Positions 1 to 41,150 are shown, numbered from the stretch's first letter. The stretch: DNA of 64,000 nucleotides from an uncultured Bacteriovoracaceae bacterium (GCA_964618975.1 CAZUDI010000001.1:2234-66233), one strand, 5' to 3'. The notes: a model not told the origin generated them from the sequence alone. Made by a program: numbers and translations.

Positions 1-197
1 ATGCCATCGACATCGAGGCCCTCGGCCAGGTCTTGGACTGGTTGGTCCCGGAATTGGTCGAGGCCCTGCGTCCCGCCCTGGAAGCGGCACTGCCGGCACT
101 GGTGCAGGGCCTGTGCGAGCTGCTGGAGCAGCATCCGGAACCCGATGTGCTGGACCCCTTGAGGACGTTCTTGGCCAGCCAGGGAGGTGCCAGATGA
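1..197 (+). CDS. 3'-terminal fragment of an upstream gene (5' end outside the window); its TGA stop overlaps the ATG of the next gene (ATGA)
   Basis: Frame 0 is open from position 3 with high GC3 and reads ...LVEALRPALEAALPALVQGLCELLEQHPEPDVLDPLRTFLASQGGAR*. The stop at 195-197 overlaps the ATG at 194. Confidence 0.4.
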   Translation, partial: AIDIEALGQVLDWLVPELVEALRPALEAALPALVQGLCELLEQHPEPDVLDPLRTFLASQGGAR

Positions 198-1324
198 AAG
201 ACATTTTCCGTAAGACCGCCAGTACCCTTGCCAATGAGGCCGTGGCGCGTTTCAAGTCCGAGGGCCGTCCGGTCATCGGCTATCCCTGCACCTATGTGCC
301 CGAGGAGATCATCCATGCCCTGGGTGGTCTGCCATTCAGGCTGCGCGGGGTGGGCATCTCGTCTCTGTCCATCGGGGACACCTATTTCGGCCCCGTCATC
401 TGCAGCTTTCCCAAATGCGTCCTGCAGCTGGCCGGGGAAGGTCAATACGCCTTCCTCGACGGGGTCATCATGTCCAATGGCTGCGACTCCATGCGCCGTC
501 TGGACGAGTGCTGGCGCAAGGCCGATGACGACATCCCGGGCACGTCCCCGGGCTTTTTCCACTACTTCGGGGTACCCCACAAGGACACCACCTACAGCCG
601 CGACTGGTTCGCCGAGGAGATCCGGGGGCTCATCGAGGCCCTCGAGGGGCACTTCGGGCTCACCCTCACCAAAGAAGCCCTGGGGGAATCCATCCGCCTC
701 TACAACGAGGGCCGCATGCTGCTCAGGCGCCTGGATGCCCTGCGAGCCCGGGAGAAGGCGCCGCTCTCGGGGGAGGAGGCCCTGAGTGTGATCATCGCGG
801 GCAGCTCTCTTCCGCGCGAGGAATACAACCGCCTGCTCACGGAGCTTCTCGTCGAGATGGAAGCTGCACCTGACGGCATCGACGGCCGCAAGCGGCTTCT
901 GCTCGTGGGCAGCATCAACGACGACCTCGATTTCGTGCGGGTGATCGAGGAGTGCGGGGCCCTGGTGGCGGCGGACACCCTGTGTTTCGGCGCACGCGCC
1001 TACCGCGATCTCGTGCCCGCAGACGGCGATCCGATCGAGGCCCTGGCCGGACGATACCTCTCACACGCCTATTGCCCGCGCATGTTCGGCCACTACCGCG
1101 AGCGTCTGGCGCTTCTTATGGACACGGTGCGCGAGTTCCGGATCGATGGAGTGATTCTGCAGAACATCCGCTTCTGCGACCTGCATGGCTCGGAAAACGG
1201 CATCTTCCAGCGGGACCTGGAGCGGGAGGGCATCCCCTGCCTGCGCATGGAGCGCGAATACGGTCCGCTGGTGGAATCCGGAAGGATCCGAATGCGCGTG
1301 GATGCCTTTCTGGAAAAGCTCTGA
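194..1324 (+). CDS. 2-hydroxyacyl-CoA dehydratase / benzoyl-CoA reductase family subunit, HgdB/BcrB-like (beta-type, 376 aa)
   Basis: Read from ORF 113..1324; the start is moved to MKDIFRK, which has an AGGGAGG SD. The YPCTYVPEEIIHALG motif and overall HgdB/BadE-family features are present. Confidence 0.8.
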   Translation: MKDIFRKTASTLANEAVARFKSEGRPVIGYPCTYVPEEIIHALGGLPFRLRGVGISSLSIGDTYFGPVICSFPKCVLQLAGEGQYAFLDGVIMSNGCDSMRRLDECWRKADDDIPGTSPGFFHYFGVPHKDTTYSRDWFAEEIRGLIEALEGHFGLTLTKEALGESIRLYNEGRMLLRRLDALRAREKAPLSGEEALSVIIAGSSLPREEYNRLLTELLVEMEAAPDGIDGRKRLLLVGSINDDLDFVRVIEECGALVAADTLCFGARAYRDLVPADGDPIEALAGRYLSHAYCPRMFGHYRERLALLMDTVREFRIDGVILQNIRFCDLHGSENGIFQRDLEREGIPCLRMEREYGPLVESGRIRMRVDAFLEKL

Positions 1325-1396
1325 TTCATGGGCATGAACCCCAGGGCAAACCCTGGATCCGCCTTGACGCCGCAAGCAGTGGTGAATGCTATGCCT
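1322..1396. repeat. MITE/REP-like dispersed repeat, copy A (TGATTCATGGGCATGAACCCCAGGGCAAACCC...)
   Basis: It shares the ATGGG..ATGAACCCCAGGGCAAGCC left arm with copies E, H and D. Its first TGA is the stop codon of the gene ending at 1324. Confidence 0.75.
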
Positions 1397-1429
1397 AGCG
1401 CTTCAAGGCAGAAATGACAAAGGGGGTAT

Positions 1430-1663
1430 GTGATGACCAACGAATCCATCGCCATCGAGGTCCTCACGGGCATGGCCCTGGACGACGCGCGGGTGCTCGC
1501 CGAGCGCCAGCGGGCTATCGACGCCCTGACGCTCTTCCACGAGGAGGCGCTCAAGGCCCTGCAGATGATCGAGAAGAAGGTGCACAACCAGGTGCTCAAG
1601 GAGCGTTCCCGCCTCTATCAGGACCGCATCCGGCAGGGGGCCAGCATCAGCATGACGCTGTAG
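1430..1663 (+). CDS. small hypothetical protein (77 aa) embedded between dehydratase subunit genes
   Basis: The ORF has an AAGGGGG SD upstream of its ATG and ends 11 nt before the next gene's SD. I recognise no family for it. Confidence 0.45.
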   Translation: MMTNESIAIEVLTGMALDDARVLAERQRAIDALTLFHEEALKALQMIEKKVHNQVLKERSRLYQDRIRQGASISMTL

Positions 1664-1674
1664 GGGAGAAACAC

Positions 1675-3150
1675 ATGAAAAAGGAAACTCGCGAATACGC
1701 CTATGACTGGAATCTCTGGACCATCATCGCCAATGCCTCCCGCAGCTACGACGGCTCGCCCAAGGAATATGCCGCCCTGCTCGAGTATGTCCCGCACTTC
1801 CGGGATTGCCTCGACGCCCTCATCCGGCACGGGCAACCGGGCATCCTGCTGCTCAAGCTGCTGGAAGGCTACCTGAGCGACTGCCTGCAGGCCCGCGACC
1901 GCGGGCAGAAGACCGCCTTCACCACCTTCTGTTTCGCGAGCCCCATCCTGTATGCCTTCGATGTGGTCCCCATCTGCACCGAGCCCATGTCGGTCCTGGG
2001 GACCTTCATCCACAAACGCGGCACGGCCGAATTCCTCGATTTCTGCTGCGAGGCGGGCTTCACCGAGACCTCCTGCTCCGCCCAGCGCGGCGCCCTGGGG
2101 GCCTACCTGGCGGGCCTCGGGGTGCGGCCGGACTTCGTGGTCTGCGATTCCCCCGGCATCTGCGATACCAACGCCAATTCCTTCGCCTTCGCCGCGGCCT
2201 GGCTCGATGTCCCCTTCTTCCAGCTCGATCACCCCCCGACCCTGACCGACGAACGCGCGCGCCGCTACTACCGACAGGATTTCCGCCGGCTGATCGCCTT
2301 CCTCGAGGAGCAGACCGGGAAAACCCTCGACCATGAGAGGCTTCGCGCCGTGATCGAGGAAATCCGGCGCCAGGACGAGCTGATCTGCGAGATTCAGGAA
2401 CTGCAGACGCTTCAACCCAATCCCGTGCCCGGGATCTACACCCTCTTTCTGTATGCCGGCAACTTTCTCCGGGGCGGCCGTCCCGAATATACCCGTCTGC
2501 TGGAGGCCATGCTCGCAGGCCTGCGCCCGGGTAGCGCCCCCCTCATCGCTTCTCCGCCGGAGCGGGCGCGGGGGATCTTTGCCTATATCGACCACTACAC
2601 CACGGACCTGCGTTTCTGGAACTGGCTGGAGACCCAGGGGGTCAGCCACCTGGGGTGCATCCTCAGTGCCTTCTGGCAGAAGGAAGCCTCCTACGCCTCC
2701 GACCGCCAGGAGGAAACCTATGATGCCATCGACTGCACGAGCCTCGATGGCATGCTGGACACCCTGGCCGACCAGATGTCGCGCATGCCCATGGTGAAAT
2801 CGATCCGAGGCCCCTACGACGCCCCCCATATGTGGCTCGAGGATACCCTGGGCATGGCGCGCCACTACCGGGCCGATTTCGTGGCCTACATCGGCACCAT
2901 GGGGTGCCGCAACACCTGGGGCATGGTCAAGCTTCTGGCGCGCGACCTCGAGCGGCAGGGCTACCCTACCCTGGTCCTCTACGGCGATGCCTTCGATGAC
3001 CGGGTGATGTCGTGGGAGTCCATCACGGACAAGCTGGAGGAATTCCTCAGCCTCAGGAACATCGGGCGACAGCCCCTCCCGGACGGCACAGCGTCTCCCT
3101 TACGAACCGGGGATCGACACCCCCTCTCCTCGCGGCCGGGAGGGGTTTAA
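1675..3150 (+). CDS. 2-hydroxyacyl-CoA dehydratase / BCR family subunit, HgdA/BcrC-like (alpha-type copy 1, 491 aa)
   Basis: This is an in-frame internal start (MKKETREY..) of ORF 1414..3150, with a GGGGAG SD. It shows strong HgdA-family features and is a paralog of the next gene. Confidence 0.8.
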   Translation: MKKETREYAYDWNLWTIIANASRSYDGSPKEYAALLEYVPHFRDCLDALIRHGQPGILLLKLLEGYLSDCLQARDRGQKTAFTTFCFASPILYAFDVVPICTEPMSVLGTFIHKRGTAEFLDFCCEAGFTETSCSAQRGALGAYLAGLGVRPDFVVCDSPGICDTNANSFAFAAAWLDVPFFQLDHPPTLTDERARRYYRQDFRRLIAFLEEQTGKTLDHERLRAVIEEIRRQDELICEIQELQTLQPNPVPGIYTLFLYAGNFLRGGRPEYTRLLEAMLAGLRPGSAPLIASPPERARGIFAYIDHYTTDLRFWNWLETQGVSHLGCILSAFWQKEASYASDRQEETYDAIDCTSLDGMLDTLADQMSRMPMVKSIRGPYDAPHMWLEDTLGMARHYRADFVAYIGTMGCRNTWGMVKLLARDLERQGYPTLVLYGDAFDDRVMSWESITDKLEEFLSLRNIGRQPLPDGTASPLRTGDRHPLSSRPGGV

Positions 3151-3240
3151 TCGCTATGGGACAAATTCCCCGTTGCTTGCAGCGGCAAGGAGGGGCAAAA
3201 GCTTGCCCCGGGGTTCACACCTATCTTTTCGCATGATCAG
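3147..3240. repeat. MITE/REP-like dispersed repeat, copy B (TTAATCGCTATGGGACAAATTCCCCG...GCTTGCCCCGGGGTTCACACC...CATGATCAGG)
   Basis: This is a full-length, inverted-orientation copy. Its initial TTAA provides the TAA stop of the alpha-1 dehydratase gene. Confidence 0.8.
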
Positions 3241-3258
3241 GGACGACAGGAGGTCAGG

Positions 3259-4662
3259 ATGAAGCGAGAGACACGTGAGTACCGTTTTGACTGGAATCTC
3301 TGGACGATCCTCGAGTGTGCCTCCAAGACCCAGGACGGATTCCGCAAGGAGTATGCGCACCTGCTCGACTATGTCCCGCACTATGCCGGGGTGCTGGAAG
3401 AATTCATGCGCCACGGTGAACCGGGACAGCGCTTTCTGAAGCTCCTGGCCGAATACATGGACATGTGCGTCCATGCCAAGCAGCGCGGCCAGACCACGGC
3501 TCTGACCACCTTCTGCCTCGCGCCGCCGATCCTGTACGCCTTCGATGTCGTGCCGCTGAGCCTGGAGGCATGGACGGTGCTCGGCACGATCGTGCTTGAA
3601 CGCGGCACGGCCGAGTTCTTGGACCACTGCTGCGAACTGGGCTTCACCGAGACCTCCTGCTCGGCCCAGCGCGGGGCGCTGGGCGCCTGGCTGGCCGGCT
3701 TGTGCACCGAGATGGATTTCATCGTCTTCGACTCCCCGGGCATCTGCGACACCAATGCCAATTCCTTTGCCTTCGCCTCGGCCTGGCTCGACAAACCCCT
3801 CTTTCAGCTCAACAGCCCCCCGACCCTCACAGACGATCGCGCGCTGCGCTATCACCGCGAGGACTTCAGGGCCCTGATCCATTTCCTCGAAGAGCAGACC
3901 GGGAGGGCCCTGAACGAGGGACGGCTCAGGGAGGTGCTCGAGGAGATCGCCCTCCAGGACGAGCTCGCCTGCGAACTCTTCGACCTGGCCGCCCTGAGGC
4001 CCTCCCCCGTGCCCCCGGTCTATGACCTGCTGCTCTACGGGGGCAAATTCATGATGGGGGGGCTGCCGACCTACACCCGCCTCCTGGAATCCATGGTGAG
4101 AACGGCCAGCGAGAACGCCCGCCGCGGGGCGGCCGGCACGACGACGGGCCGCGAAAGGGCGCGCGCCTTCTTCTGCTATATCGATCATTACACGACCGAT
4201 GCCCGCTTCTGGAACTGGTTTGACCGGCAGGAGATCAGCCTGCTGGGCTCCATGCTCTTCACCTTCTGGCAGAAGGACGCCGTCTACGCGAAGGGCAAGG
4301 AGGATCAGGGGTATAGCATCAGGACCGACAACCTGGAGGGCATGCTCGACTCCCTGACGGCCCAGATGTCCCGCATGCCCATGGTCAAGCAGATCCGGGG
4401 ACCCTACGACGCACCGGGCATGATGCTGGACGACGCCCTGGGGGCCGCCCGGGCGCTTAATGCCGATTTCGTCGTCTATTTCGGCACCATGGGGTGCCGC
4501 AACACCTGGGGCATGATCAAGCTCATCGCCCGCGACCTGGAACGCGAAGGCTACCCCACCCTGATCATGTACGCCGACGGCTTCGACGACCGGGTGATGT
4601 CCTGGGATTCGATAACGGACAAAATGACTGAATTTCTAAACTTAAGGAGGATAGTGGCATGA
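3259..4662 (+). CDS. 2-hydroxyacyl-CoA dehydratase / BCR family subunit, HgdA/BcrC-like (alpha-type copy 2, tandem paralog)
   Basis: The 467-aa protein starts MKRETREYRFDWNLW and has an AGGAGG SD. It is collinear with the preceding gene at roughly 55-60% identity. Confidence 0.85.
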   Translation: MKRETREYRFDWNLWTILECASKTQDGFRKEYAHLLDYVPHYAGVLEEFMRHGEPGQRFLKLLAEYMDMCVHAKQRGQTTALTTFCLAPPILYAFDVVPLSLEAWTVLGTIVLERGTAEFLDHCCELGFTETSCSAQRGALGAWLAGLCTEMDFIVFDSPGICDTNANSFAFASAWLDKPLFQLNSPPTLTDDRALRYHREDFRALIHFLEEQTGRALNEGRLREVLEEIALQDELACELFDLAALRPSPVPPVYDLLLYGGKFMMGGLPTYTRLLESMVRTASENARRGAAGTTTGRERARAFFCYIDHYTTDARFWNWFDRQEISLLGSMLFTFWQKDAVYAKGKEDQGYSIRTDNLEGMLDSLTAQMSRMPMVKQIRGPYDAPGMMLDDALGAARALNADFVVYFGTMGCRNTWGMIKLIARDLEREGYPTLIMYADGFDDRVMSWDSITDKMTEFLNLRRIVA

Positions 4663-5450
4663 TCACAGCCGGATGTGACGTCGGTTCCCTTACCGCCAAG
4701 GCGGTGGTCCTCAACCGCAGAACCATCCTCGGACAGGCCGTCATCAAGGCCTCCTCCCATCCCGAGGAGGCGGCCGACGAGGTGATGTCCCGGGCGCTGG
4801 CGCAGGCCGGGATCCCCCGCAGCGAGGTACGCTGCTGCGTGGGCACGGGCTACGGCCGCAACAAGATCCCCTTTCTGGACCACGCCGTCTCCGAGATCAC
4901 CTGCCACGGCAGGGGGGCCCAGTGGCTGCTGCCCAGCGCGCGCACGGTGATCGACATCGGCGGCCAGGACTGCAAGGCCCTCCGGCTCGACCGGGACGGC
5001 ACGGTGCTGAAATTCACCACCAACGACAAGTGCGCCGCCGGAACGGGGCGTTTCCTGGAGGTCATGGCACGCCTGCTGGGACTGAGCCTGGACGAACTGG
5101 GTACCATGGGTGGCACCCCCTCGGGTGAGCCCCTGTCACTCTCCTCCACCTGCACCGTGTGGGTGCAGGCCGAGGTCATCCGTCACCTCAACTGCCGCAG
5201 GCCCATCGACGAGATCAGCGACGCCATCAACCGGGCCATGGCCGGCCGCGTGGCCATCCTGGCCAACAGCGTGGGGGTGGACAAGGACGTCTGCATGACC
5301 GGCGGGGTGGCCAAGAACCAGGGTGTGGTCAGGCACCTGGAACGGCTCCTGGGGGTGAGGATCAAGCGCCTGCGGATCGACCCCCAGCTCACCGGCGCCC
5401 TGGGCGCGGCCCTCGTGGCCCGGCAGCACCTGGAAGGGGGTGCGGCATGA
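4659..5450 (+). CDS. CoA-substrate-specific enzyme activase (HgdC/BcrAD/BadFG ATPase family), copy 1
   Basis: The 263-aa ORF has GCDVGSLTAKAVV ... GTGYGR ... IDIGGQD ... TGGVAKN motifs typical of the acetate/sugar-kinase-fold [4Fe-4S] activases. Its ATG overlaps the upstream stop (ATGA). Confidence 0.85.
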   Translation: MITAGCDVGSLTAKAVVLNRRTILGQAVIKASSHPEEAADEVMSRALAQAGIPRSEVRCCVGTGYGRNKIPFLDHAVSEITCHGRGAQWLLPSARTVIDIGGQDCKALRLDRDGTVLKFTTNDKCAAGTGRFLEVMARLLGLSLDELGTMGGTPSGEPLSLSSTCTVWVQAEVIRHLNCRRPIDEISDAINRAMAGRVAILANSVGVDKDVCMTGGVAKNQGVVRHLERLLGVRIKRLRIDPQLTGALGAALVARQHLEGGAA

Positions 5451-6223
5451 TCGTGGCAGGAATCGACGTGGGCTCGCTCACCGCCAAGGCGGTGATCCTG
5501 GACGACAACCGCATCCTGGCCGCGCAGATCATCCGGGATCTGCCCGATCCGGTCGAGTCCGCCCGCCGCGTGATTGCGGCGGCCCTGGACCAGGCGGGCC
5601 TGGGCCTGGCTGATCTCGCCTGCTGTGTGGGCACGGGCTACGGCCGGGAACAGATCCCCTTCGCGCATTCCACCTGCTCCGAGATCGCCTGTCACGGCAA
5701 GGGGGCCCAGTGGCACGACCCCGATATCCGCATGGTGATCGACATCGGGGGCCAGGACGCCAAGGCCATCCGCCTCGATTCAGAGGGCAATATCGTGCGC
5801 TACGCCTACAACGACAAGTGCGCCTCGGGCACCGGGCGCTTTCTGGAGATCATGGCCGAGGCCCTGGGCGTGCCCCTGGACGAGATGGGGGCGCTGTCGC
5901 TGAGTGCGCGCGAGGTCCTTTCGATCTCGAATCAGTGTGTCATCTTCGCCGAGACGGAGATCGTCTCCCTGGTCAACGAGGGCGCCGCGCTCCCGGCGGT
6001 CGTCAAGGGCCTGCACCGGGCCCTGGCACATCGCGTGGCGGCCCTGGCCAAGGGCATCGAGCTGGAGACCGGCATCGCCTTTACCGGAGGCGTGGCCAAA
6101 AACCCGGGCATGTTCGCCGAATTGGAAAGCGCTTTAGGGATCGAACTTCGACACATCGATCCCGACCCGCAGATTACCGGCGCCCTGGGAGCGGCGCTCT
6201 TCGCCGCCCAGCAGGCGGCCTGA
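5447..6223 (+). CDS. CoA-substrate-specific enzyme activase (HgdC/BcrAD family), copy 2
   Basis: The in-frame start MIVAGIDVGSLTAKAVIL lies within ORF 5159..6223. It carries the same motif set as copy 1 and is ATGA-coupled to it. Confidence 0.85.
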   Translation: MIVAGIDVGSLTAKAVILDDNRILAAQIIRDLPDPVESARRVIAAALDQAGLGLADLACCVGTGYGREQIPFAHSTCSEIACHGKGAQWHDPDIRMVIDIGGQDAKAIRLDSEGNIVRYAYNDKCASGTGRFLEIMAEALGVPLDEMGALSLSAREVLSISNQCVIFAETEIVSLVNEGAALPAVVKGLHRALAHRVAALAKGIELETGIAFTGGVAKNPGMFAELESALGIELRHIDPDPQITGALGAALFAAQQAA

Positions 6224-6224
6224 G

Positions 6225-6980
6225 ATGGATCTCTTCGAGCCCTATATCGATGCCGTGCGCGCCTTTGCCGCACGCCGCCCGGAAAGGAGGAGCACCACGC
6301 TCCCCGAGCAGGTAGTCTGGCCCCGGGGAGGCCGCCGCAACATCGTGCTCGGCTCCGACATGGCCTTCGAACTGGGCAGCCCGCAGATGGAGTCGTTCTC
6401 CGTGCTGCTCTGGAGCGAGCAGGCGGATCGGGTGCGCGACCGCTCGCTGACCCTGATCGGGCCGGACATTTCCCGGGGTGTGCCCGGGCAGCTGCCCTTT
6501 GCCCGGGTGCTCCTGGTGGGGGTCCAGGGCTTCGACGAACAGAACACCTATGCCCGCTACCGGGAGATGGAGCAGTCCCGCTACGATCTCGATCTGAGAG
6601 GCTACATGCTGCGGGCCGTTTCCCAGTACCAGCGCGAGTGGTGCCGCCTCAGCCATGAAGCCCTCGCGGGCGGGTTCACCTTTGCCACCCTGGCCGCGCG
6701 CCACATGGACCTCCTGCACCGCCTGCCCTATGTAATCGCAACCGAGATGCTCATCGTGACCTCTGCAAGCGAAGACGTGCGCGAACTGCGTATGGTCCTC
6801 AAGGACACCGCGCGCATCATCGCCGCCATGAACACGATGTTTTCCGAGCTGGATCTCGACTGCGAGAGTTGTGAATATCAGGATGTGTGCACGGAGGCCA
6901 GTGAGCTCAGACGCATGCATACACGCATCGTGGAGTCCGCCGCGCGGGAGCGCCAGCGCGACGAGGGACCCGGCTGTTAA
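6225..6980 (+). CDS. hypothetical protein co-transcribed with the dehydratase/activase cluster (C-terminal CxxCxxxxxC motif)
   Basis: The 251-aa ORF starts 2 nt after the activase stop. I recognise no family; the C-terminal CESCEYQDVC cysteines are the only notable motif. Confidence 0.55.
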   Translation: MDLFEPYIDAVRAFAARRPERRSTTLPEQVVWPRGGRRNIVLGSDMAFELGSPQMESFSVLLWSEQADRVRDRSLTLIGPDISRGVPGQLPFARVLLVGVQGFDEQNTYARYREMEQSRYDLDLRGYMLRAVSQYQREWCRLSHEALAGGFTFATLAARHMDLLHRLPYVIATEMLIVTSASEDVRELRMVLKDTARIIAAMNTMFSELDLDCESCEYQDVCTEASELRRMHTRIVESAARERQRDEGPGC

Positions 6981-7024
6981 GGAAAGTCTTTTCTTGGCGC
7001 TGTCTTTGTTATACAGACAGGGTC

Positions 7025-7291
7025 ATGGAAGAAAACACCTCTAACTGCCCCTTAAGCGCCTGGATGGATCGTGAGAATGCCTGCCGCACCCGTCAGGGAT
7101 CCGATGGCAACACCTGGATCAAGGTCTACTTCGGCTCGGGGGCCCACTTCAGAAACTGGCACGCGCAGTACGTGGAGATCTACGGTGAGGAGAACATCGA
7201 GGTGGAACCGGTGGACATGAAGGGCCGGGCCTGCTTCGGCGAGGGCGACCACACGGCCTACCGCATCTGGGCACGCCAGCTCTCTTCCTAG
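7025..7291 (+). CDS. small hypothetical protein (88 aa)
   Basis: This ORF has a weak RBS and convergent orientation and no recognisable family. Confidence 0.3.
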   Translation: MEENTSNCPLSAWMDRENACRTRQGSDGNTWIKVYFGSGAHFRNWHAQYVEIYGEENIEVEPVDMKGRACFGEGDHTAYRIWARQLSS

Positions 7292-7310
7292 CCGCCACGC
7301 GTCCCCGGTG

Positions 7311-7955
7311 TCATCTACCGATGCGCCTTTGGTGTGAGAGGAACCAGGCGTAAAGTTCAGAGCTTGCGTAGGCCTTGGTCCAGGCGTCGTGGCCGGCATC
7401 CGGATAGACGGTGAAACGCACCTCGCCCCCCAGAGCCCGCAGCGAGAGCACCATGGCCTGTGATTCCTTAAGGGGCACCACCTCGTCTTGAGCCCCGTGG
7501 AAACACCACACCGGCAGCCTCTCGAGGGTTCCGGGCCTGAAGGGGACCCGCAGCCCGCATATCGGGGCGATGGCAGCAAAGCGTTCCGGAAAGGCCGCTG
7601 CCAACTGCCAGGTGCCCCACCCGCCCAGGGAGAGGCCCGTCAGATAGATACGTCCCCCATCGACAGGCTTATCTGCGATAATCGCATCGAGCAGCTCCAT
7701 GAGCGGGGCGTTTTCCCAGCGGTACCCCGCCGGGCACTGGGGGGCCAGAATGACGAAGGGCAGCTCCTCCCCCTGCAGCACCCGCTGGAGCGGTCCATGG
7801 CGTGTGACAAGCTCGAGGTCATCCCCACACTCGCCCGTCCCGTGCAGGAAGAGCATCAGCGGCCGGGGTCCGGGTCCGGCTACCTCGGGCAGATAGAGCA
7901 CATGGCCATAGCCCTGCGGGGAGCCGGTGGGCAGGCGGCGACGGTATTCGAGCAT
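7311..7955 (-). CDS. alpha/beta-hydrolase fold esterase (phospholipase/carboxylesterase family)
   Basis: The 214-aa protein carries the GLSLGG nucleophile-elbow motif and a conserved His near the C-terminus. Confidence 0.75.
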   Translation of the reverse strand: MLEYRRRLPTGSPQGYGHVLYLPEVAGPGPRPLMLFLHGTGECGDDLELVTRHGPLQRVLQGEELPFVILAPQCPAGYRWENAPLMELLDAIIADKPVDGGRIYLTGLSLGGWGTWQLAAAFPERFAAIAPICGLRVPFRPGTLERLPVWCFHGAQDEVVPLKESQAMVLSLRALGGEVRFTVYPDAGHDAWTKAYASSELYAWFLSHQRRIGR

Positions 7956-7964
7956 GCCGCCCCC

Positions 7965-8477
7965 TCACTCCTCGGCAGGGTGCGTCCATCGGACACTCTC
8001 CCCCCTGTCGCGGGGTGCCTCCGGCACCGGACCGAGCAGGCCCAGCACCTCCCGGGGGGAGATACTGCACCCCCGCGCCCGCAGGAGGGTCTGCATGCGG
8101 GCGCAGGCCACCAGCCGGCCCTGCCGCTCGAAGAACTGCTCCATGATGAACCAGCGTTCGTCCCAGGTGACGAGCTGGGTCTTCAGCTCGAAGGTCTCTC
8201 CCAGCCGGAGTCCCCGGTGATACTCGATCGAAAGGCCCTTCATGACCGGGAACCACCTGCGCCGCAGGGCCGGAACCAGCACGCCGATGGATCCCATGAA
8301 ATGCAGGCGCCCCAGGTCCATGAAGGACAGGTAGCGCCCGTTGTTCATGTGCCCGTTGAGATCGATGTCGGTGGGCCCCACCCTGAAATGCAGGCACGCC
8401 TCGTCCAGGGGCCGCAGGCACGAGCCCTCAAGGCCCATGCGCACAATCAAGCCCAGCAGTCTGAGGTACATGTTCAC
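7965..8477 (-). CDS. hotdog-fold acyl-CoA thioesterase family protein
   Basis: The 170-aa protein has a DIDLNGHMNNGRYLSFMDLGR motif typical of thioesterase-superfamily (YbgC/4HBT-like) proteins. Confidence 0.65.
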   Translation of the reverse strand: MNMYLRLLGLIVRMGLEGSCLRPLDEACLHFRVGPTDIDLNGHMNNGRYLSFMDLGRLHFMGSIGVLVPALRRRWFPVMKGLSIEYHRGLRLGETFELKTQLVTWDERWFIMEQFFERQGRLVACARMQTLLRARGCSISPREVLGLLGPVPEAPRDRGESVRWTHPAEE

Positions 8478-8584
8478 TGTATGGCTCCCATCTTCTCCAG
8501 GAAGGCAGCTTTATTCATTCGCACCCTGAATACGGCGAGGGCACGTCCCGCCATGTGGTTAGACATCCTGGCCTCCGCGGGGAC

Positions 8585-9481
8585 TCACCTGCCCCGGGGC
8601 GCCGAATCCAGGGGCTCCCGGGCCGCCAGCCACGCCGCGGGTATGCCCTCGAGCCCCGTGGAAAGGGCCACGATGCCTCCGACGATGGCGCAGGTGGTGT
8701 CCCGGTCACCCAGGCCCGCCACCGTGGTCCAGAGTGCCTCCTCATAGTTTCCCAGATGACGTGCCGCACACCACAGACAGAAGGGTACCGTATCGACCGT
8801 GGTGACCCGACTCCCGTTGCCCAGCCGGTGCACGGCTTCTTCCACCGGGGCACTCAGGGGCAATTCGAGCGCCTGCTGGATGCCGCGGCGCGTCTCTCCT
8901 GGCGGGGTATATGTAAGCGCGGCCTCGATGATCGTGCGCCCCTCGTCCATCTGCCCCCGCAGGCGACAGGCGCTGGCGGCGGCCACGGCCACGGCCATCG
9001 CCCCGCTGATGCCCTCGGGATGGGCATGGGTTACCGCGGCCGACAAGCCGGCCTGAGCGGCGGCCAGACTCAGATCGTGGCAGAAGAAGGCGCCGAGTGG
9101 CGCCACCCGCATGGCGCTCCCGTTGCCCAAGGAGCCCGCCCCCTCAAAGGCGGCACCGGAGACCTCGCGCCAGTCCTGCCCGCTGGCGATCTGGGACAGG
9201 ATGCGCTCGGCCATTGCGCCGTAGCCGCGCCAGGGCTCGCGCATGAACTTGCCAGCAAAGCTCTTAGCCAGTTCGTCCTGGTCGATGGTGCAGAAACGCT
9301 CCAGCACCTCCACGATGGAGCACGCCATGGCGGTATCGTCGGTATAGGGCCAGGGGGCTGGCGGCAGACGCCGCACAGCGATGTCGTCCGCGTGCCGGAA
9401 GAACTTTTCGCCGAAGGCGTCCCCCACGGAGAGGCCCGCGAGGGCCAGCCGGGCACGTTCCTGGGGGGTGGGCGCCGCCAT
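8585..9481 (-). CDS. ADP-ribosylglycohydrolase family protein
   Basis: The 298-aa protein has an N-terminal GDAFGEKFF motif, a YTDDTAMA motif and an overall DraG-like pattern. Confidence 0.75.
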   Translation of the reverse strand: MAAPTPQERARLALAGLSVGDAFGEKFFRHADDIAVRRLPPAPWPYTDDTAMACSIVEVLERFCTIDQDELAKSFAGKFMREPWRGYGAMAERILSQIASGQDWREVSGAAFEGAGSLGNGSAMRVAPLGAFFCHDLSLAAAQAGLSAAVTHAHPEGISGAMAVAVAAASACRLRGQMDEGRTIIEAALTYTPPGETRRGIQQALELPLSAPVEEAVHRLGNGSRVTTVDTVPFCLWCAARHLGNYEEALWTTVAGLGDRDTTCAIVGGIVALSTGLEGIPAAWLAAREPLDSAPRGR

Positions 9482-9501
9482 GCCTGATCCTCTTCAGGGG
9501 T

Positions 9502-10023
9502 TCATAGCGACCCGTCGAGGTCGTCGGACACATCCCGCTTGCAGACCCGGCAGCGCTGTGCGCCCCGGAAAAGCGGGCTGCCGCAGTCCGGGCAGTGGTA
9601 GCGTTCGCACTCCGCCCGGGCCCACTCCACGCTGCCCTCCTCATCGCCGTAGCGGGCGACCATCTCGCGCCAGAGCGGGATGGTGCGCTGCATCACCCGC
9701 AGCCCTGTGGCCAGTCCGAAATTCTCGACCATGGAGCAGGGCCATTCCTCGCACTGGTGGCAGGAGTAGAAGCCTTTTGTTCTGACACAGTCCCGGATGG
9801 CACACTGGGAACAGTAACCGTAGAGCATCTCGGGCGGATCGGGTTGCATGCACCCCCGGCAGCGCGTCTCATCCGGGCGGGTCCCGTAGAGGTTACCCAT
9901 GACCGCTTTGAACTTGTCGTTGTCATCGCGCGTGGCGATATACACCCCGCATACCCCGCAATACAGTCCGCAGGGTGCCATCAGGTCCCTGTCTCTGAGC
10001 TCTTCCTCCGACCATCCCTTCAT
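9502..10023 (-). CDS. DUF3795 domain-containing cysteine-rich protein
   Basis: The internal start MKGWSEE has a GGAGG SD. The protein has a CGLYCGVCGVY motif plus several further C-x2-C motifs. Confidence 0.65.
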   Translation of the reverse strand: MKGWSEEELRDRDLMAPCGLYCGVCGVYIATRDDNDKFKAVMGNLYGTRPDETRCRGCMQPDPPEMLYGYCSQCAIRDCVRTKGFYSCHQCEEWPCSMVENFGLATGLRVMQRTIPLWREMVARYGDEEGSVEWARAECERYHCPDCGSPLFRGAQRCRVCKRDVSDDLDGSL

Positions 10024-10298
10024 GCTCGGCCTCCTGTAATCGCTGAGGGTCGTATTCCCCGCCGCTGCCGTCTTCAACCTCAATCCAGGGCCGGCCCCTA
10101 ATTTCATACCCCGGGCTTGCCCCAGCTCGCCTGTCAAAATTTAGCGTTCAGGGCATGGGCACGGGTTGTCCCGATAATCTGTCATGCCGGGAAAAATGTC
10201 AAGCCGGGCACTTCCCCAAGTCAGACGCCCGCAAAGATAAGACACAAGTCCCGATCGGCACCGTGCAGCGGATCCAGGCCTCAAGGCCGCAATGTCTC

Positions 10299-12472: not shown

Positions 12473-13288
12473 CTACGGCCACTGAACGGGTCGGATACCC
12501 ACACATGCCGGCCGTGATTGCAGGATATCCTTCAAGCTGATCTCGGGGTGGTGATAGCGCGCATATCTTGCGGTCTTCCGGCCGTACTGGATCGCTTCCT
12601 TAGGGCACCACTGCAGGCAGGCAAAGCATTGCTGACAGCCGTGCATCCAGACCGGCCGCCCCTGATCGAGTACAATGTTGGAGGTCGGGCACACCTTCTG
12701 GCAGATCCCGCAGTGGTTGCAGCGCTCATCGGCCCAGAACCCCTTGTCCATCCCGGATACCTTCTCGAAGCTCAGCCGATAGATCGCGCTGAAGACGATC
12801 CTCTGCCAGAGGGGGCCCTTCTCGAGCGGCACAACCTGCCTGTCCCTGATCACGGGTACGATGGATGCAATCCTCTCCCGGGCGAGACCAAAACGACGCT
12901 CCTGCTCCTCCCGGGGCCCCGGACCACCCCAGGGGATATAGTTGGAGGGCATGGTGATGGCAAATCCCGCGCCCAGGTTCACACCACGGGTACGCATGAT
13001 CTCTCCCAGCTGCACCAGCGTGTTGGAAACCTGACCGGCATTGACCGCCACCGCGAAGACGTACGCCGGATGAGGCCCCTCCAGGGTTTCGACAAAGCGC
13101 ACAACCGCACCCGGCACCCCCCAGATATGGACCGGGAAGACCAGGCCGATCGTCTCAGCCGTCAGGTCCTGTGCCCCTGTACCTGCCGAGATCGAGACCG
13201 GACTCTCGGCCTCCAGGGCTGCGGCCAGTTCTCTGGCCACCCAGAACGAATTGCCAGTGCCCGTATAGTAGTAAATGCATGTGCCCAT
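12473..13288 (-). CDS. EFR1-family ferredoxin (flavodoxin-like domain + 2x[4Fe-4S] ferredoxin domain)
   Basis: Start MGTCIYYYTGTGNS follows a strong AAGGAGG SD. The C-terminal CNHCGICQKVCP and CQQCFACLQWCP motifs are present. Confidence 0.75.
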   Translation of the reverse strand: MGTCIYYYTGTGNSFWVARELAAALEAESPVSISAGTGAQDLTAETIGLVFPVHIWGVPGAVVRFVETLEGPHPAYVFAVAVNAGQVSNTLVQLGEIMRTRGVNLGAGFAITMPSNYIPWGGPGPREEQERRFGLARERIASIVPVIRDRQVVPLEKGPLWQRIVFSAIYRLSFEKVSGMDKGFWADERCNHCGICQKVCPTSNIVLDQGRPVWMHGCQQCFACLQWCPKEAIQYGRKTARYARYHHPEISLKDILQSRPACVGIRPVQWP

Positions 13289-13475
13289 GATCCCCTCCTT
13301 CATGCGATCCCCCACAAGGAGGACACTTCACCTCTCGTGAAGACCACGATCATAGCCCGTATCTCCTGAATAATACGACCGCGTTATCCCCCGCCACTCT
13401 CATGGTGAGCGATATGGAGAAGAAGGCGCTTGTTACCCCTTTATACACCAGACTCATCCCTCACGCCTACCTCGT

Positions 13476-15158
13476 TTAAAGGCGGGCCCCCTCCGTACAG
13501 GGGCTCACCTGACCTGATGGCGCACCGCCAATGCACACATGCAGGGAAGCCCCCGGCGGCACCATGGGCAGCGCCATGGCACCCTCGTCGACCGGGAGAA
13601 CGAAAATGAAGGGCCCGCGCGTCTGCAGGCAGGTGGCCAGGTCGTCATTCCGAGGCAGGGATCCGGCCGGCAGCCCGAAACTGCGTGCGATGGCCAGGTA
13701 GTCGGTGGGCTTCTCAAAGCGCGCGGCCGTGATGCGGCCGTGATGGAAGAGCGCCTGCTGCTGGCGCACGAGACCCAGATGACCGTTGTCTAGGATGAAG
13801 ACCTTGACGTTGCACCCAAGCTCGGCCAGCGTGGCGAGTTCCTGAATATTCATGAGCAGTGAGCCATCGCCGGTGAAACACAGGACGGTCTTGTCCGGGT
13901 GCATGAGGGCACAGCCGATGGCCGCCGGCAGGCCAAAACCCATGGTGCCGAAACCGCCCGAGGTGATCAGCTGGCCGGCATGCTGGAAGGGAAAGGCCTG
14001 GGTCGTCCACAGCTGATGCTGGCCCACATCGGTGGTCACGAGCGTATCCGTCCCGGCCGCCTCCCCGATGGCGGCGATGACACCCAGCGGCGCACGTTCG
14101 TCTAGCTGCGGGGGATGGGCCTGGCGGATGGTGGCGATCTCGCCTTGCCAGGAGGAGCGGCTGCGGGCAGAGACGCGCGGCACAAGCATGGCGAGCGCCG
14201 CGCGGGCGTCGGCCGTGATCGGGCAGCTCGATGGCCGAACCTTGTTGATCTCGGCCGGATCGATATCGATGTGGATCAGCTTGGCCTGGGGAGAGATCAG
14301 ATCGCTCGGGCTGGTAGCGCGATCATCGAAACGGGTGCCGATGGCAATGATGCAATCGGACCTGCCCAGGATCAGGTTGGTGGCATATTCCCCATGCATC
14401 CCGGGCAGACCGAGACAGGACCTGTCCGAGGACGGAAAGACCCCCTGGGCCATGAGGGTCACAACGGCCGGGATGCAGGCCTTGTGTGCAAGATCCCGTG
14501 CGAAGGCGGCGGCGCCTGCATGCCGAACCCCGCCGCCCACATAGAGCACCGGCCGGCGGGCGGCATCGATCATGGCCGCGGCCCGCGCAATACTCCCGGC
14601 ATGGGGCCTGGGGGGTGCGCCTCTTTCCCCGGGAGATGGCCACCGCTCAATGACTGTCGTCTCGAGCTGCACATCCCGGGGCACATCGATCAGCACCGGA
14701 CCCTGGCGGCCGGAGGCCGCCAGGGCAAAGGCATGCGGGATCAGGTCCGTCAGCTCACGGGCCTGGCGCACGCGCACGGCGTGTTTGGTGAAACCGGACA
14801 CCACCCCGCAGATATCGATCTCTTGGAAGGCATCCGTGCCGATGAGGGGGCGGGAGACCTGACCGGTGATGGCGATCAGGGGCACCGAGTCCCTGGAGGC
14901 GTCGGCAATGGCGGTCACGAGATTGGTGGCGCCCGGGCCCGAGGAGGCCAGGCAGACTGCCGGACACCCCGTCGAGCGTGCCATGCCCTGGGCGATAAAG
15001 GCCGCTCCCTGCTCATGGCGGGCCAGGATATGGCGGATGCCCCCCCGTGAGAGGGCGTCGTAGAGCGGCAGATTGGCCCCGCCGGGGATGCCGGCCACGA
15101 TGTGGATGCCCTGCCGCTCGAGGAGTTTCACAATAATTTCCGCGCCCGTCATTCGCAT
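13476..15158 (-). CDS. ilvB: thiamine-diphosphate enzyme, acetolactate synthase large-subunit type (IlvB/IlvG-like)
   Basis: The 560-aa protein begins MTGAEIIVKLLERQG and shows ALS-family conservation throughout. No ilvN follows, so the exact TPP-enzyme subfamily is uncertain. Confidence 0.7.
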   Translation of the reverse strand: MRMTGAEIIVKLLERQGIHIVAGIPGGANLPLYDALSRGGIRHILARHEQGAAFIAQGMARSTGCPAVCLASSGPGATNLVTAIADASRDSVPLIAITGQVSRPLIGTDAFQEIDICGVVSGFTKHAVRVRQARELTDLIPHAFALAASGRQGPVLIDVPRDVQLETTVIERWPSPGERGAPPRPHAGSIARAAAMIDAARRPVLYVGGGVRHAGAAAFARDLAHKACIPAVVTLMAQGVFPSSDRSCLGLPGMHGEYATNLILGRSDCIIAIGTRFDDRATSPSDLISPQAKLIHIDIDPAEINKVRPSSCPITADARAALAMLVPRVSARSRSSWQGEIATIRQAHPPQLDERAPLGVIAAIGEAAGTDTLVTTDVGQHQLWTTQAFPFQHAGQLITSGGFGTMGFGLPAAIGCALMHPDKTVLCFTGDGSLLMNIQELATLAELGCNVKVFILDNGHLGLVRQQQALFHHGRITAARFEKPTDYLAIARSFGLPAGSLPRNDDLATCLQTRGPFIFVLPVDEGAMALPMVPPGASLHVCIGGAPSGQVSPCTEGARL

Positions 15159-38289: not shown

Positions 38290-38372
38290 ATCGTGGCTAT
38301 GAAAACCCTCCGGCAAGCCCGGGCCACTCCTTGACGCCAGAAGCGGCGGGGAACCCGACCCATACCGATTAA
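38290..38372. repeat. MITE/REP-like repeat, copy F
   Basis: It reads ATCGTGGCTATGAAAACCCTCCGGCAAGCCCGGG..CCTTGACGCCAGAAGCGGCGGGGAACCCGACCCATACCGATTAA. Its terminal TTAA overlaps the frr stop codon. Confidence 0.7.
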
Positions 38373-38926
38373 ACTTCCAGAATCTCTTTTTCCTTTACGG
38401 ACAGGAGTTCATCCACCTTCTTGATACTCTCGTCCGTGACGGTCTGCACTTTGTCGAGCCCCTTCTGCATCTCATCCTTGTTGATCTCCTTGTCCTTCTC
38501 GAGATCCTTGAGCAGGGCATTGGCGTCCCGGCGATGGTTGCGCATCTCGATCTTATAGTCCTCCGCCATCTTCTTGACCATACGGACCAGTTCCTTGCGG
38601 CGTTCCTCGTTCAACGGGGGGATAGGCACCCGGATGATGTTCCCGTCATTATTGGGGGTCAGACCGAGCTCCGATTTCATAATGGCCTTTTCGATCGGCC
38701 CCAGGGCACCCTTATCCCAGGGCTGAATGGAAATCAGCCGAGCTTCGGGTACGGACAGGGTGGCCAGCTGGTTCAGCGGTGTCGGGCTGCCGTAGTAATC
38801 CACCAGGATCCCGTCCATAATGCCGATGGAGGCCCTGCCCGTGCGCACCTTGGCCAGGGCCTGCTTCATGGCCTCGAGGCTCTTGACCATGTCCTGCTTC
38901 ATTTCATTGAGTACATCATCAACCAT
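38369..38926 (-). CDS. frr: ribosome recycling factor
   Basis: The start MVDDVLNEMKQDM has a GGGAGGA SD, and the protein shows RRF-family conservation. Confidence 0.9.
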   Translation of the reverse strand: MVDDVLNEMKQDMVKSLEAMKQALAKVRTGRASIGIMDGILVDYYGSPTPLNQLATLSVPEARLISIQPWDKGALGPIEKAIMKSELGLTPNNDGNIIRVPIPPLNEERRKELVRMVKKMAEDYKIEMRNHRRDANALLKDLEKDKEINKDEMQKGLDKVQTVTDESIKKVDELLSVKEKEILEV

Positions 38927-38930
38927 AGGT

Positions 38931-39650
38931 TCATCCTCCCCCTGCCCATACACGGGATCCGATATCCTCGCCCATCAGGAGCCCCCGCAGCTTCTCCGGC
39001 ACATTGATGTTCATGACGCGGATTTCCAGGCCGTTATCACGGCACAACGCGATGGCTGAGGCATCCATCACCTTCAGGTTTCTGCTGAGCACCTCGTCAT
39101 AATCGAGTTCGGCAAAGAAGACGGCCTCCGGATACCGCACAGGGTCCCTGTCGTAGACACCGTCGACCTTGGTGGCCTTGATCAGGACGTCGGCCCCGAT
39201 CTCCAGCGCGCGCAGCGCGGCCGTAGTGTCGGTGGTGAAATACGGGCACCCCGTGCCCCCGGCAAAGAGTACCACCCGGTTGTGATCGAGGTGTTTGAGT
39301 GCCCGGGCCCGAACAAAGGTCTCGACCACCCGGGGAACCTCCAAGGCACTCATGATGCGGCTCTCCAGGCCCTGGCGGCCCATCTCTTCCGACAGCGCCA
39401 AGGCGTTCATGAGCGTCGCCAACATGCCCATGTGATCCGAACGCACACGGTCCGTGAAGATCCCGGTCTGGGCGCCGCGGTGAATGTTGCCACCGCCGAT
39501 GACGATGCCCACCTGCGCCCCGGTCTCCACGGCTACCCGCACACATGCGGTGATGCGGGCCAGGGCCTCGGGCTCGATCCCGAAGCCCTGCGCGCCGGCC
39601 AGGGCCTCACCGCTGAGTTTCAAGAGAATGCGGGAATACCGGATCGTCAC
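38931..39650 (-). CDS. pyrH: UMP kinase
   Basis: It has a YSRILLKLSGEAL motif and a GGGNIHRG motif. A GTG start is proposed (VTIRYSRILLK aligns to the E. coli PyrH N-terminus); the 5' end is uncertain (the ORF is open to 39710). Confidence 0.8.
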   Translation of the reverse strand: MTIRYSRILLKLSGEALAGAQGFGIEPEALARITACVRVAVETGAQVGIVIGGGNIHRGAQTGIFTDRVRSDHMGMLATLMNALALSEEMGRQGLESRIMSALEVPRVVETFVRARALKHLDHNRVVLFAGGTGCPYFTTDTTAALRALEIGADVLIKATKVDGVYDRDPVRYPEAVFFAELDYDEVLSRNLKVMDASAIALCRDNGLEIRVMNINVPEKLRGLLMGEDIGSRVWAGGG

Positions 39651-39654
39651 GGTT

Positions 39655-40254
39655 CTACAGCTCTTCTCCCAACTGATACCTGGCAAAACGCCGGATGAGA
39701 CATTTTTCACCGGTCTTGCCCATCAGCTGTTCCAGTAGCTGCCCCACGCTCACGTCCGAGTCCTTGACAAAGGGCTGCTCGAGCAGACAGCGCTCGGAAT
39801 AGAACTTCTTGAGTTTGCCCTCGACGATCTTGTCCAGGATCTTTTCGGGTTTGCCGGATTTGAGGGCCTGCTCCTTGAGGATCTCCTTTTCCTTGTCCAG
39901 CACCTCACCGGGCACCTCGTCGCAGCTGACCCATTCCGGGCCGGCGGCGGCGATATGCATAGCGACATCCTTGGCGAAACTGGTGAAATCATCCGACTTG
40001 GCCACGAAGTCACTCTCGCAGTTCACCTCGAGGAGCACGCCGATCTTGCCGCCCATATGGATGTAGGAGATCACGGTTCCCTGTAAGGTCGCCCGCCCCG
40101 AGCGCTTGCTGGCCACCTCCATGCCCTTCTTGCGAAGCAACTCGACGGCCTTATCGAAGTTACCCCCGGCCTCGGTGAGGGCCTTCTTGCAATCCATCAT
40201 GCCCACGCCGGTCTTATCTCTCAGTTTCTTGACGTCTTCTGCTGTTATCTGCAC
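39655..40254 (-). CDS. tsf: elongation factor Ts (short form)
   Basis: The 199-aa protein has the N-terminal UBA-like motif ITAEDVKKLRDKTGVGMMDCKKAL. Confidence 0.9.
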   Translation of the reverse strand: MQITAEDVKKLRDKTGVGMMDCKKALTEAGGNFDKAVELLRKKGMEVASKRSGRATLQGTVISYIHMGGKIGVLLEVNCESDFVAKSDDFTSFAKDVAMHIAAAGPEWVSCDEVPGEVLDKEKEILKEQALKSGKPEKILDKIVEGKLKKFYSERCLLEQPFVKDSDVSVGQLLEQLMGKTGEKCLIRRFARYQLGEEL

Positions 40255-40274
40255 GCTCTCCCTCCCCTCATGCT

Positions 40275-41150
40275 CTAGGCTGTTTCTTCATCCTCGAATT
40301 CATCGACCGTGCCGCTAGGGAGTTCATCATCACCGCCCTTGACGATGATCTCGATTTCACCCTCGAGTCCCTGACCGATCTGCTCCCTGGGACGACCCTC
40401 GGCCGCCGAAGGTGCACCTTCGACCTCTGAAGAGGCCTCCTTTATCTCGCTTTGCAGCTTTTCCTCGTAGAGGGAACGCCCCTCTATGACCGCCTCGGCG
40501 ATCTTCGAGGTGAAAAGCCGGATGGCCCGGATGGCGTCGTCATTGCCGGGAATGACATAATCGATAAGGGTAGGATCACAATTCGAATCCACGATGGCCA
40601 CAATGGGGATGCCCAGTTTGCGCGCCTCCTTGACAGCGATGTTCTCCCGTGTAGGATCGACCACATAGACGATATCCGGCAGGTGATCCATATCCTTGAT
40701 CCCGTTCAGGGCGCGATCGAGCTTCATCTTGTGGCGCTTCATGCTGAGCTGTTCCTTCTTGGGATAGTCCTCGATCGTGCCGTTATCGATGATATTCTCG
40801 AGCCACTTGAGCTTTTCGACGCTCAGCTTGATGGTCTCATAGTTGGTGAGCATGCCGCCCAGCCAGCGGTGATTGATATAGAAGGCCCCGGAGCGCTGCG
40901 CCTCTTCCTCGATGGCGTCCTGGGCCTGCTTCTTGGTCCCCACGAATAGAATGCGCCCCCCGCTGGCCGTGGTTTCCCTTATGAAATCACACGCCTGATC
41001 AAAGAGTTTCTCGGTCTTCTGCAGATCGATGATGTGGATACCGTTTCTGGCCCCGAAGATATAGGGTTTCATCTTGGGATTCCAACGCGGGGTTTGATGG
41101 CCGAAATGGACGCCTGCCTCCAGAAGCTGCTTCATGCTAACTACCGACAT
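40275..41150 (-). CDS. rpsB: 30S ribosomal protein S2
   Basis: The protein starts [27 protein letters not shown] and has an acidic C-terminal extension. Confidence 0.9.

Follow-up and report, generated by a model that had tools for sequence, protein, structure and literature searches.

The window analyzed here is a 64,000-nucleotide stretch of DNA from an uncultured Bacteriovoracaceae bacterium (GCA_964618975.1, CAZUDI010000001.1:2234-66233). At its start lies a gene cluster for subunits of the radical-enzyme family that comprises the benzoyl-CoA reductases (BCRs) and the 2-hydroxyacyl-CoA dehydratases (HADs): a beta subunit, a 76-residue protein, two alpha subunits (alpha1 and alpha2), two ATPases (ATPase 1 and ATPase 2), and a protein derived from acetyl-CoA synthase (ACS) (Table 1). 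An initial annotation, made from the sequence alone, had located these seven open reading frames (ORFs), and all of them were found on the plus strand at the positions and with the sizes it gave. A Pfam search gave HGD-D domains for beta and both alphas and BcrAD_BadFG domains for both ATPases. The kind of enzyme is known; what is new is that the cluster belongs to an uncharacterized subfamily with fixed accessory components.

The initial annotation took the cluster to span positions 194–6980 and overlooked that it is truncated by the window start. Bases 1–197 are the 3′ end of a gene that we designate u418, as seen from metagenome scaffolds of the same project with an identical beta; one of these scaffolds, L005, differs from the window at 2 of 5,879 bases. 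A TetR gene lies 5′ of u418 in L005 and in the near-identical relative L003, and further upstream L003 encodes two small helical proteins (144 and 209 residues) and the C-terminus of an acyl-CoA dehydrogenase-like protein. The region 194–6980 is the downstream portion of one longer operon, in the order acyl-CoA dehydrogenase-like gene, two small helical proteins, TetR, u418, beta, 76-residue protein, alpha1, alpha2, ATPase 1, ATPase 2, and ACS-like protein. Its genes are translationally coupled through ATGA stop/start overlaps at the u418–beta junction and at positions 4659 and 5447. The latter two had been reported in the initial annotation together with a third at 6225, which did not hold: the junction between ATPase 2 and the ACS-like gene reads TGA-g-ATG, that is to say, a spacer of 1 nucleotide. 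A scan of bases 1–8000 gave no promoter-like site and two terminator-like sites, fewer than in shuffled sequence, and an Rfam search of the window gave no match.

Six cysteine residues of beta (Cys32, Cys70, Cys97, Cys264, Cys294, and Cys328) align in the HMMER alignment with Cys36, Cys73, Cys100, Cys263, Cys293, and Cys327 of BzdN, which ligate an [8Fe-9S] double-cubane cluster (PMC11971306). All 6 are invariant in 58 homologues, and beta Arg268 and His331 align with BzdN Arg267 and His330. HadC has no counterpart of Cys32. We predict from this ligand set that beta carries an [8Fe-9S] double-cubane cluster. Beta scores below every NCBIfam cut-off (score/cut-off: double_cubane (NF040772), 172.8/350; HadC, 149.2/700; BcrC, 143/421; BzdN, 129/454).

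The alphas have the ligands of a second cluster. Cys134, Cys163, and Cys411 of alpha1, which are kept in alpha2 and invariant in 70 homologues, align with Cys95, Cys128, and Cys380 of BzdO and with the cysteine residues of HadB, and the invariant alpha residue Glu103 aligns with BzdO Glu65. In BzdO, the 3 cysteine residues ligate the catalytic [4Fe-4S]-OH2 cluster, and Glu65 forms an acid/base pair with His131 (PMC11971306).

The two ATPases are 47% identical to each other. Each has 2 invariant cysteine residues (Cys125 and Cys165 of ATPase 1 in 62 sequences, Cys125 and Cys164 of ATPase 2 in 70 sequences), which we take to correspond to the cluster ligands Cys127 and Cys166 of HgdC by the alignment offset to PDB 1hux. 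In comparisons with characterized ATPases, ATPase 1 and ATPase 2 score 212 and 204 bits against MbdQ, 211 and 198 bits against HadI, and 133 and 132 bits against MbdP, respectively. Both remain below the NCBIfam cut-off for BzdQ (196–199/380).

The initial annotation described this architecture as non-canonical, partly on the assumption that an ATPase of about 440 residues is a constant feature of class I BCRs. The assumption holds only for the Thauera type and is wrong for the Bzd/Mbd type (BzdNOPQ; MbdONQP; PDB 8s02, 9g87/9gai), which is composed of a beta, an alpha, and two ATPases of about 260–270 residues, as here. The chains MbdN, MbdO, MbdP, and MbdQ of the solved 3-methylbenzoyl-CoA reductase have 388, 445, 273, and 269 residues, compared with 376, 467–491, 263, and 258 residues for beta, the alphas, ATPase 1, and ATPase 2; thus, a BCR with two ATPases of about 270 residues already exists. 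The non-canonical character was therefore largely lost, while the core of the initial annotation, an ATP-dependent, electron-activated BCR/HAD-family enzyme that has alternative alphas and a heterodimeric ATPase, stood.

Comparison with the Bzd/Mbd-type BCRs revealed the following likenesses: (i) the four-subunit composition, in a gene order, beta-alpha-ATPase-ATPase, that is also the bzdNOPQ order; (ii) the six-cysteine [8Fe-9S] site in the N-like subunit; (iii) the three-cysteine [4Fe-4S] site with the conserved glutamate in the O-like subunit; and (iv) two cluster cysteine residues per ATPase. We consider it probable that the cluster encodes an ATP-driven, very-low-potential iron–sulfur reductase of the BCR/HAD radical-enzyme family, built like a Bzd/Mbd-type class I BCR, because the ligand pattern (a predicted double cubane in beta, a predicted three-cysteine open-site cluster in alpha, and two paralogous ATPases) matches these BCRs rather than the dehydratases or the double-cubane cluster proteins (DCCPs). 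The cluster differs from them in its additional conserved partners, namely, u418, the 76-residue protein, the ACS-like protein, and in most genomes a CooC-type ATPase, and in the absence of dienoyl-CoA pathway genes.

From the observed domain identities, ligand conservation, gene order, and co-occurrence, we infer a complex that may work as follows. The conserved paralogy of the two ATPases suggests a heterodimer, in which 2 cysteine residues per subunit would hold one bridging [4Fe-4S] cluster. A low-potential donor would give an electron to this heterodimer, and ATP hydrolysis would push the electron onto the [8Fe-9S] cluster held by the 6 cysteine residues of beta. Electron flow would then proceed to the three-cysteine [4Fe-4S] cluster of alpha, where radical chemistry would reduce a substrate, most likely an acyl-CoA thioester, positioned on or close to the free iron site.

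Relatives of the cassette were collected with 2 independent seeds. The ACS-like protein gave 140 relatives among GTDB species representatives, for which 80 loci were retrieved, and alpha gave 369 relatives on metagenome contigs, for which 77 loci were retrieved; the two sets share some contigs, and the counts below rest on 106 loci with a complete core. At least these 106 loci contain the cassette; they belong to Desulfobacterota, Spirochaetota, and a few Bacillota. The taxa found with the ACS-like seed are Smithella, other Syntrophales, Desulfomonilia, Desulfosudaceae (including Desulfosudis oleivorans), Desulfobacterales, Spirochaetota, and a few Bacillota. The consensus locus begins with two acyl-CoA dehydrogenase-like genes and two or three genes for small helical proteins, or with a crotonase and a GMC-type flavoprotein gene. 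These are followed by a TetR or GntR gene, u418, beta, the optional 76-residue protein, and one to three alphas, and the locus ends with ATPase 1, ATPase 2, the ACS-like protein, and the CooC-like ATPase. ATPase 1 and ATPase 2 form two separate orthologue groups, both present in every complete locus. In all 54 alpha-seeded loci whose sequence extends far enough downstream, the gene for the ACS-like protein directly follows ATPase 2; of the 106 loci, 102 have u418, and the CooC-like ATPase is found in 92 of 96.

The conserved upstream neighbours bear on the substrate. An acyl-CoA dehydrogenase-like or GMC flavoprotein gene lies upstream in 49 of 54 loci. Taken with the likeness of alpha to HadB and BzdO, the conserved neighbours of the acyl-CoA dehydrogenase-like and crotonase types suggest that the substrate is an acyl-CoA. 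These neighbours score far below the equivalog cut-offs, the best match being cyclohexane-1-carbonyl-CoA dehydrogenase (105/650).

Downstream of the consensus locus, a flavodoxin-ferredoxin protein is optionally encoded, as is a second module consisting of a distant HGD-D pair, a 436-residue ferredoxin-domain protein, and a single activase. The second module is found in 51 of 73 loci; its HGD-D pair (about 377 and 505 residues) lies downstream of CooC in most relatives (for example, L036:11567-16451, L025, and L037), and its often-present 436-residue partner has a 2x[4Fe-4S] domain. The second HGD-D module of the relatives is below all NCBIfam equivalog cut-offs.

The 251-residue protein that follows ATPase 2 had been listed as unknown in the initial annotation, which overlooked its origin as an ACS-derived domain. 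It has the A2 domain fold of ACS/CdhC, followed by two helices with the motif C213-x2-C216-x5-C222, and ends about 30 residues past this motif. The C-terminal motif CESCEYQDVC had been noticed in the initial annotation and is real; its 3 cysteine residues are the only invariant ones in 32 homologues. Compared with the ACS systems (AcsB/CdhC with AcsF/CooC), the protein retains the A2 domain only: it has neither the A3 domain nor the A-cluster ligands (4 cysteine residues for the [4Fe-4S] cluster and Cys-Gly-Cys for nickel), which are replaced by the CxxCx5C tail, and its score against the NCBIfam model for cdhC is 30.6, with a cut-off of 356. No genes for carbon monoxide dehydrogenase or a corrinoid protein lie near the window cluster. 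Homology of the CxxCx5C motif to Cys506 and Cys509 of the A-cluster was considered and could not be demonstrated. Since residue 482 is the last one reached by the profile alignment to ACS, we take the likeness to be one of position only.

The ACS-like family is small: 242 clusters at E≤1e-30 came out of an exhaustive profile search across 1.84 billion representative proteins, and among the 150 matches listed nearly all are 230–260 residues long. The PF03598 sub-domain has been noted to occur alone (PMC4443539). One metagenome protein (P0036, 308 residues) is a natural fusion in which the ACS-like part is followed by a 2x[4Fe-4S] ferredoxin domain at the C-terminus; by Rosetta-stone reasoning, this hints at a role of the family in electron transfer. 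In three Spirochaetota loci (L007, L060, and L063), the gene for the ACS-like protein is accompanied by a second-type HGD-D module only, along with a GMC flavoprotein and a 155-residue protein, and in L007 and L060 CooC follows it; in L059 the gene stands alone, adjoining recBCD. These arrangements indicate that the ACS-like protein is not strictly tied to alphas and betas of the type found in the window. The CooC-like ATPase of the relatives has CooC1 as its best PDB match (8.6e-15); the CYC metal motif aligns, and its 2 cysteine residues are invariant in 67 sequences.

The linkage to the reductase, the three-cysteine motif, the ferredoxin fusion, and the CooC neighbour suggest that the ACS-like protein may be an obligate accessory subunit, whose three-cysteine motif probably binds a metal cluster for electron supply or substrate handling. 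In most genomes, the adjoining CooC-type ATPase would probably mature this cluster. The same evidence can be turned around, with the nickel/iron–sulfur site of the ACS-derived protein as the true catalytic center and the BCR-like module as its ATP-dependent reductive activator or electron pump, comparable with RACo for the corrinoid protein or the methyl-coenzyme M reductase activation complex. The coupling of the gene to the reductase in all 54 of those alpha-seeded loci, the frequent coupling to a homologue of CooC-type nickel insertases with its CxC motif, and the existence of the ferredoxin fusion fit such an arrangement. It seems distinctly unlikely to us: the protein lacks A3 and the Cys-Gly-Cys nickel site, the complete catalytic-type cluster site of alpha would have no role, and no CooC lies nearby in the window or in the closest relative, L089 (alpha 75% identical, same layout), in which 2 kb downstream were covered. 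A bolder proposal, which we regard as unlikely and put forward as speculation, is a new class of the BCR/HAD family in which an ATP-driven double-cubane pump is coupled to a miniature, CooC-matured, ACS-derived nickel/iron–sulfur protein; the latter would use nickel for C–C or C–S chemistry with an acyl-CoA as substrate (reductive carbonylation or decarbonylation, for instance) or serve as a new kind of dedicated ultra-low-potential redox partner.

The other two accessory proteins offer fewer clues. The full u418 gene, seen at L003:2708-3964 and L005:1487-2743, encodes a nearly cysteine-free protein with no Pfam or NCBIfam match. Its AlphaFold2 model is all-alpha with low confidence (pLDDT 68), and a Foldseek search against the PDB gave nothing below E=1.8. 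The gene for the 76-residue protein is predicted by gene callers in 4 metagenome scaffolds, and 47 of the 106 loci have a homologue, placed either after beta and before alpha or between two alphas.

Several observations weigh against a reductase of the Bzd/Mbd type. (i) The initial annotation had allowed for the proteins falling inside a characterized subfamily; no protein of the cluster reaches any NCBIfam equivalog cut-off, so that function is not transferable by homology, and membership in the bcr, bzd, mbd, had, or DCCP subfamilies was rejected on these curated cut-offs. (ii) Alpha is by sequence nearer to the dehydratase subunit HadB than to BzdO, from which it is remote: a profile of 26 alphas matches HadB (1e-17), DCCP (2e-13), and BzdO (2e-9), alpha1 scores 38.5/750 against HadB and 26.7/449 against BzdO, and both alphas score 28–34 bits against the double-cubane model, of whose ligands they have 3 cysteine residues only. 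(iii) An invariant asparagine (Asn166) occupies the position of BzdO His131, so the acid/base pair is only half kept. Replacement of this proton donor argues against classical benzoyl-CoA chemistry, and a Birch-type ring reduction of the BCR kind is improbable. (iv) Both ATPases are MbdQ/HadI-like instead of forming a P/Q pair; thus, the duplication behind the pair was separate from the P/Q split. (v) The cluster within the window contains no ferredoxin, CoA ligase, or CoA transferase gene. (vi) No second HGD-D module, which most relatives have, was found among all window ORFs searched, and in the region downstream of the gene for the ACS-like protein, to which this negative is confined, there is no CooC gene.

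Part of this evidence would also suit a radical enzyme that works without net redox change, like the 2-hydroxyacyl-CoA dehydratases (HadBC with HadI, HgdAB with HgdC, FldBC with FldI): the ATPases would inject only a single activating electron, to be used again through many turnovers, and alpha would dehydrate or isomerize an acyl-CoA. These dehydratases belong to the same superfamily and share the three-cysteine catalytic cluster and the glutamate. HadB is the nearest solved relative of alpha by profile, HadC is the top single PDB match of beta, HadI and MbdQ are matched equally well by both ATPases, and the BCR histidine is missing. However, known dehydratases use one homodimeric activator (HgdC, HadI, FldI), whereas two distinct and conserved ATPase paralogues are encoded here, and the cluster has no CoA transferase gene. 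Beta moreover keeps the full six-cysteine ligand set of the [8Fe-9S] double cubane, which 2-hydroxyacyl-CoA dehydratases have lost (PMC11971306). We judge a dehydratase-type enzyme unlikely on balance.

The double-cubane ligands, whose spacing in beta is DCCP-like, also raise the question of a DCCP-like reductase (DCCP/DCCP-R, PDB 6eno and 7yyl) acting on small non-CoA molecules such as unsaturated or nitrogenous compounds. Its family uses ATP-dependent electron injection by an HgdC-type ATPase, the best NCBIfam match of beta is the double-cubane family, and the physiological substrates of DCCPs are unknown (PMC11971306; bioRxiv 10.1101/2022.07.06.499078). By contrast, that match falls far under its cut-off, and DCCP is a homodimer with the double cubane as its active site, whereas beta pairs with a three-cysteine alpha in a heteromeric enzyme, as in the CoA-ester enzymes HadB and BzdO. 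The conserved acyl-CoA dehydrogenase-like and crotonase genes also speak for a CoA ester, and we hold a substrate outside CoA esters to be quite improbable. The ATP-driven reductase built like the Bzd/Mbd-type BCRs remains our preferred reading.

Within this reductase, the duplicated alpha is a variable feature: 85 of the 106 loci have one alpha, 20 have two, and 1 has three, so that 21 have more than one. Alpha1 and alpha2 are 64% identical, somewhat above the 55–60% of the initial annotation. In a neighbour-joining tree of 68 alphas, drawn with no support values, alpha1 falls in paralogue clade I and alpha2 in clade II, and the two alphas of locus L038 are split over the same two clades. The alpha pairs of Smithella represent a separate duplication within the alpha2-like clade, and L101 has three copies. 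The two clades are told apart by eight positions, among them Met105/Trp105, two residues past the catalytic-type glutamate. These differences lend weak support to different substrate pockets, and alpha1 and alpha2 may be alternative catalytic partners of the single beta.

The extra alpha and the extra ATPase might instead be decaying duplicates with no function of their own. Apart from the duplication itself, only the unconserved 24-residue C-terminal tail of alpha1 would fit this account, and we give it hardly any credence: none of the 75 invariant columns of the family alignment is lost in either alpha, both ATPases keep their cluster cysteine residues, both ATPase groups recur in every complete locus, and the two alpha clades are paired again in L038. 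The initial annotation had raised the same doubt about the second alpha and the second activase; neither is disrupted, and all cluster ligands are conserved. The tail comprises residues 468–491, is rich in proline, glycine, and arginine, and is absent from 69 of 70 homologues. It looks like a lineage-specific read-through beyond the ancestral stop. The counterpart of alpha1 in the sister scaffold L004 was called at 494 residues.

The 108-nucleotide spacer between alpha1 and alpha2 contains a hairpin with a perfect 7-bp stem (GGGGCAA-AAGC-TTGCCCC, at about 3193–3210), which the consensus scan did not score as a terminator. Possible roles are in mRNA processing or stability, or in a partial attenuation that tunes the alpha1:alpha2 ratio.

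Enzymes of the BCR/HAD family catalyze some of the most reducing reactions in biology, and substrates are known for few members. The cassette defines a coherent, widespread, and apparently unstudied branch of the family, present in at least 140 GTDB species representatives, including syntrophs and sulfate reducers from digesters, sediments, and sites rich in hydrocarbons. Its most striking partner is the stand-alone ACS domain, usually with a CooC-type maturase; should the ACS-like protein bind nickel, two ancient metalloenzyme systems with no known cooperation would be connected through it. Identifying the substrate would close a gap in the picture of carbon metabolism in Smithella, Syntrophales, and Desulfomonilia, and the cassette is defined well enough for heterologous expression. 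No description of it was found in the literature that was searched, which left out most subscription-journal papers, so a prior report is possible. The SAO/double-cubane locus of Haft was considered and rejected as a different system, and no link to the window family could be made for the ketone-induced "BCR/HGD" proteins of Desulfosarcina cetonica.

Table 1. Features of the cluster and of the genes converging on it (window coordinates).
Feature	Position	Strand	Evidence or remark
u418, 3′ end (last 65 codons of a 418-residue all-helical protein)	1–197	+	Gene directly 5′ of beta
Beta, 376 residues, BzdN/DCCP-like	194–1324	+	HGD-D, E=1e-87 (Pfam); best PDB matches HadC, BzdN, DCCP
Small protein, 76 residues (77 from GTG at 1430), no cysteine	1433–1663	+	ORF; GGGGG resembling a ribosome-binding site upstream
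Alpha1, 491 residues, catalytic-type, three-cysteine [4Fe-4S] site	1675–3150	+	HGD-D, E=2e-50 (Pfam)
Alpha1–alpha2 intergenic spacer with hairpin and alpha2 ribosome-binding site	3151–3258	+	Sequence inspection
Alpha2, 467 residues, paralogous catalytic-type subunit	3259–4662	+	HGD-D, E=4e-43 (Pfam)
ATPase 1, 263 residues, HgdC/BcrAD family	4659–5450	+	BcrAD_BadFG, E=7e-57 (Pfam)
ATPase 2, 258 residues, paralogue of ATPase 1	5447–6223	+	BcrAD_BadFG, E=5e-54 (Pfam)
ACS-like protein, 251 residues, stand-alone ACS middle (A2) domain	6225–6980	+	CdhC PF03598, 6e-8 (Pfam)
88-residue ORF, cluster membership doubtful	7025–7291	+	Called as a gene in scaffolds L001 and L002
Dienelactone-hydrolase-type esterase	7311–7955	-	Pfam
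4HBT-family thioesterase	7965–8477	-	Pfam
ADP-ribosylglycohydrolase	8585–9481	-	Pfam
Cysteine-rich DUF3795 protein	9502–10137	-	Pfam

The 88-residue ORF downstream of the cluster sits where the relatives encode the CooC-type ATPase. Its product has 3 cysteine and several histidine residues, and it has no Pfam match and no homologue in any related locus. Beyond it, 4 minus-strand genes (7311–10137), assigned by Pfam, converge on the cluster; the 4HBT-family thioesterase among them might act on acyl-CoA products.

Further into the window, also on the minus strand, a gene for a thiamine-diphosphate-dependent enzyme (560-residue ORF, 13476–15158) adjoins that of a 261-residue ferredoxin-domain protein (together 12502–15158); the gene caller split the former into two genes in scaffold L001. 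An apparent housekeeping block on the minus strand (38369–41150), read from ORF translations of which only that of rpsB was checked, comprises rpsB, tsf, pyrH, and frr. The rpsB product is ribosomal protein S2 and is 76–79% identical to proteins of Desulfomonilia and "Deltaproteobacteria" metagenome-assembled genomes, a similarity that places the window in the chromosome of an uncultured Desulfobacterota lineage.

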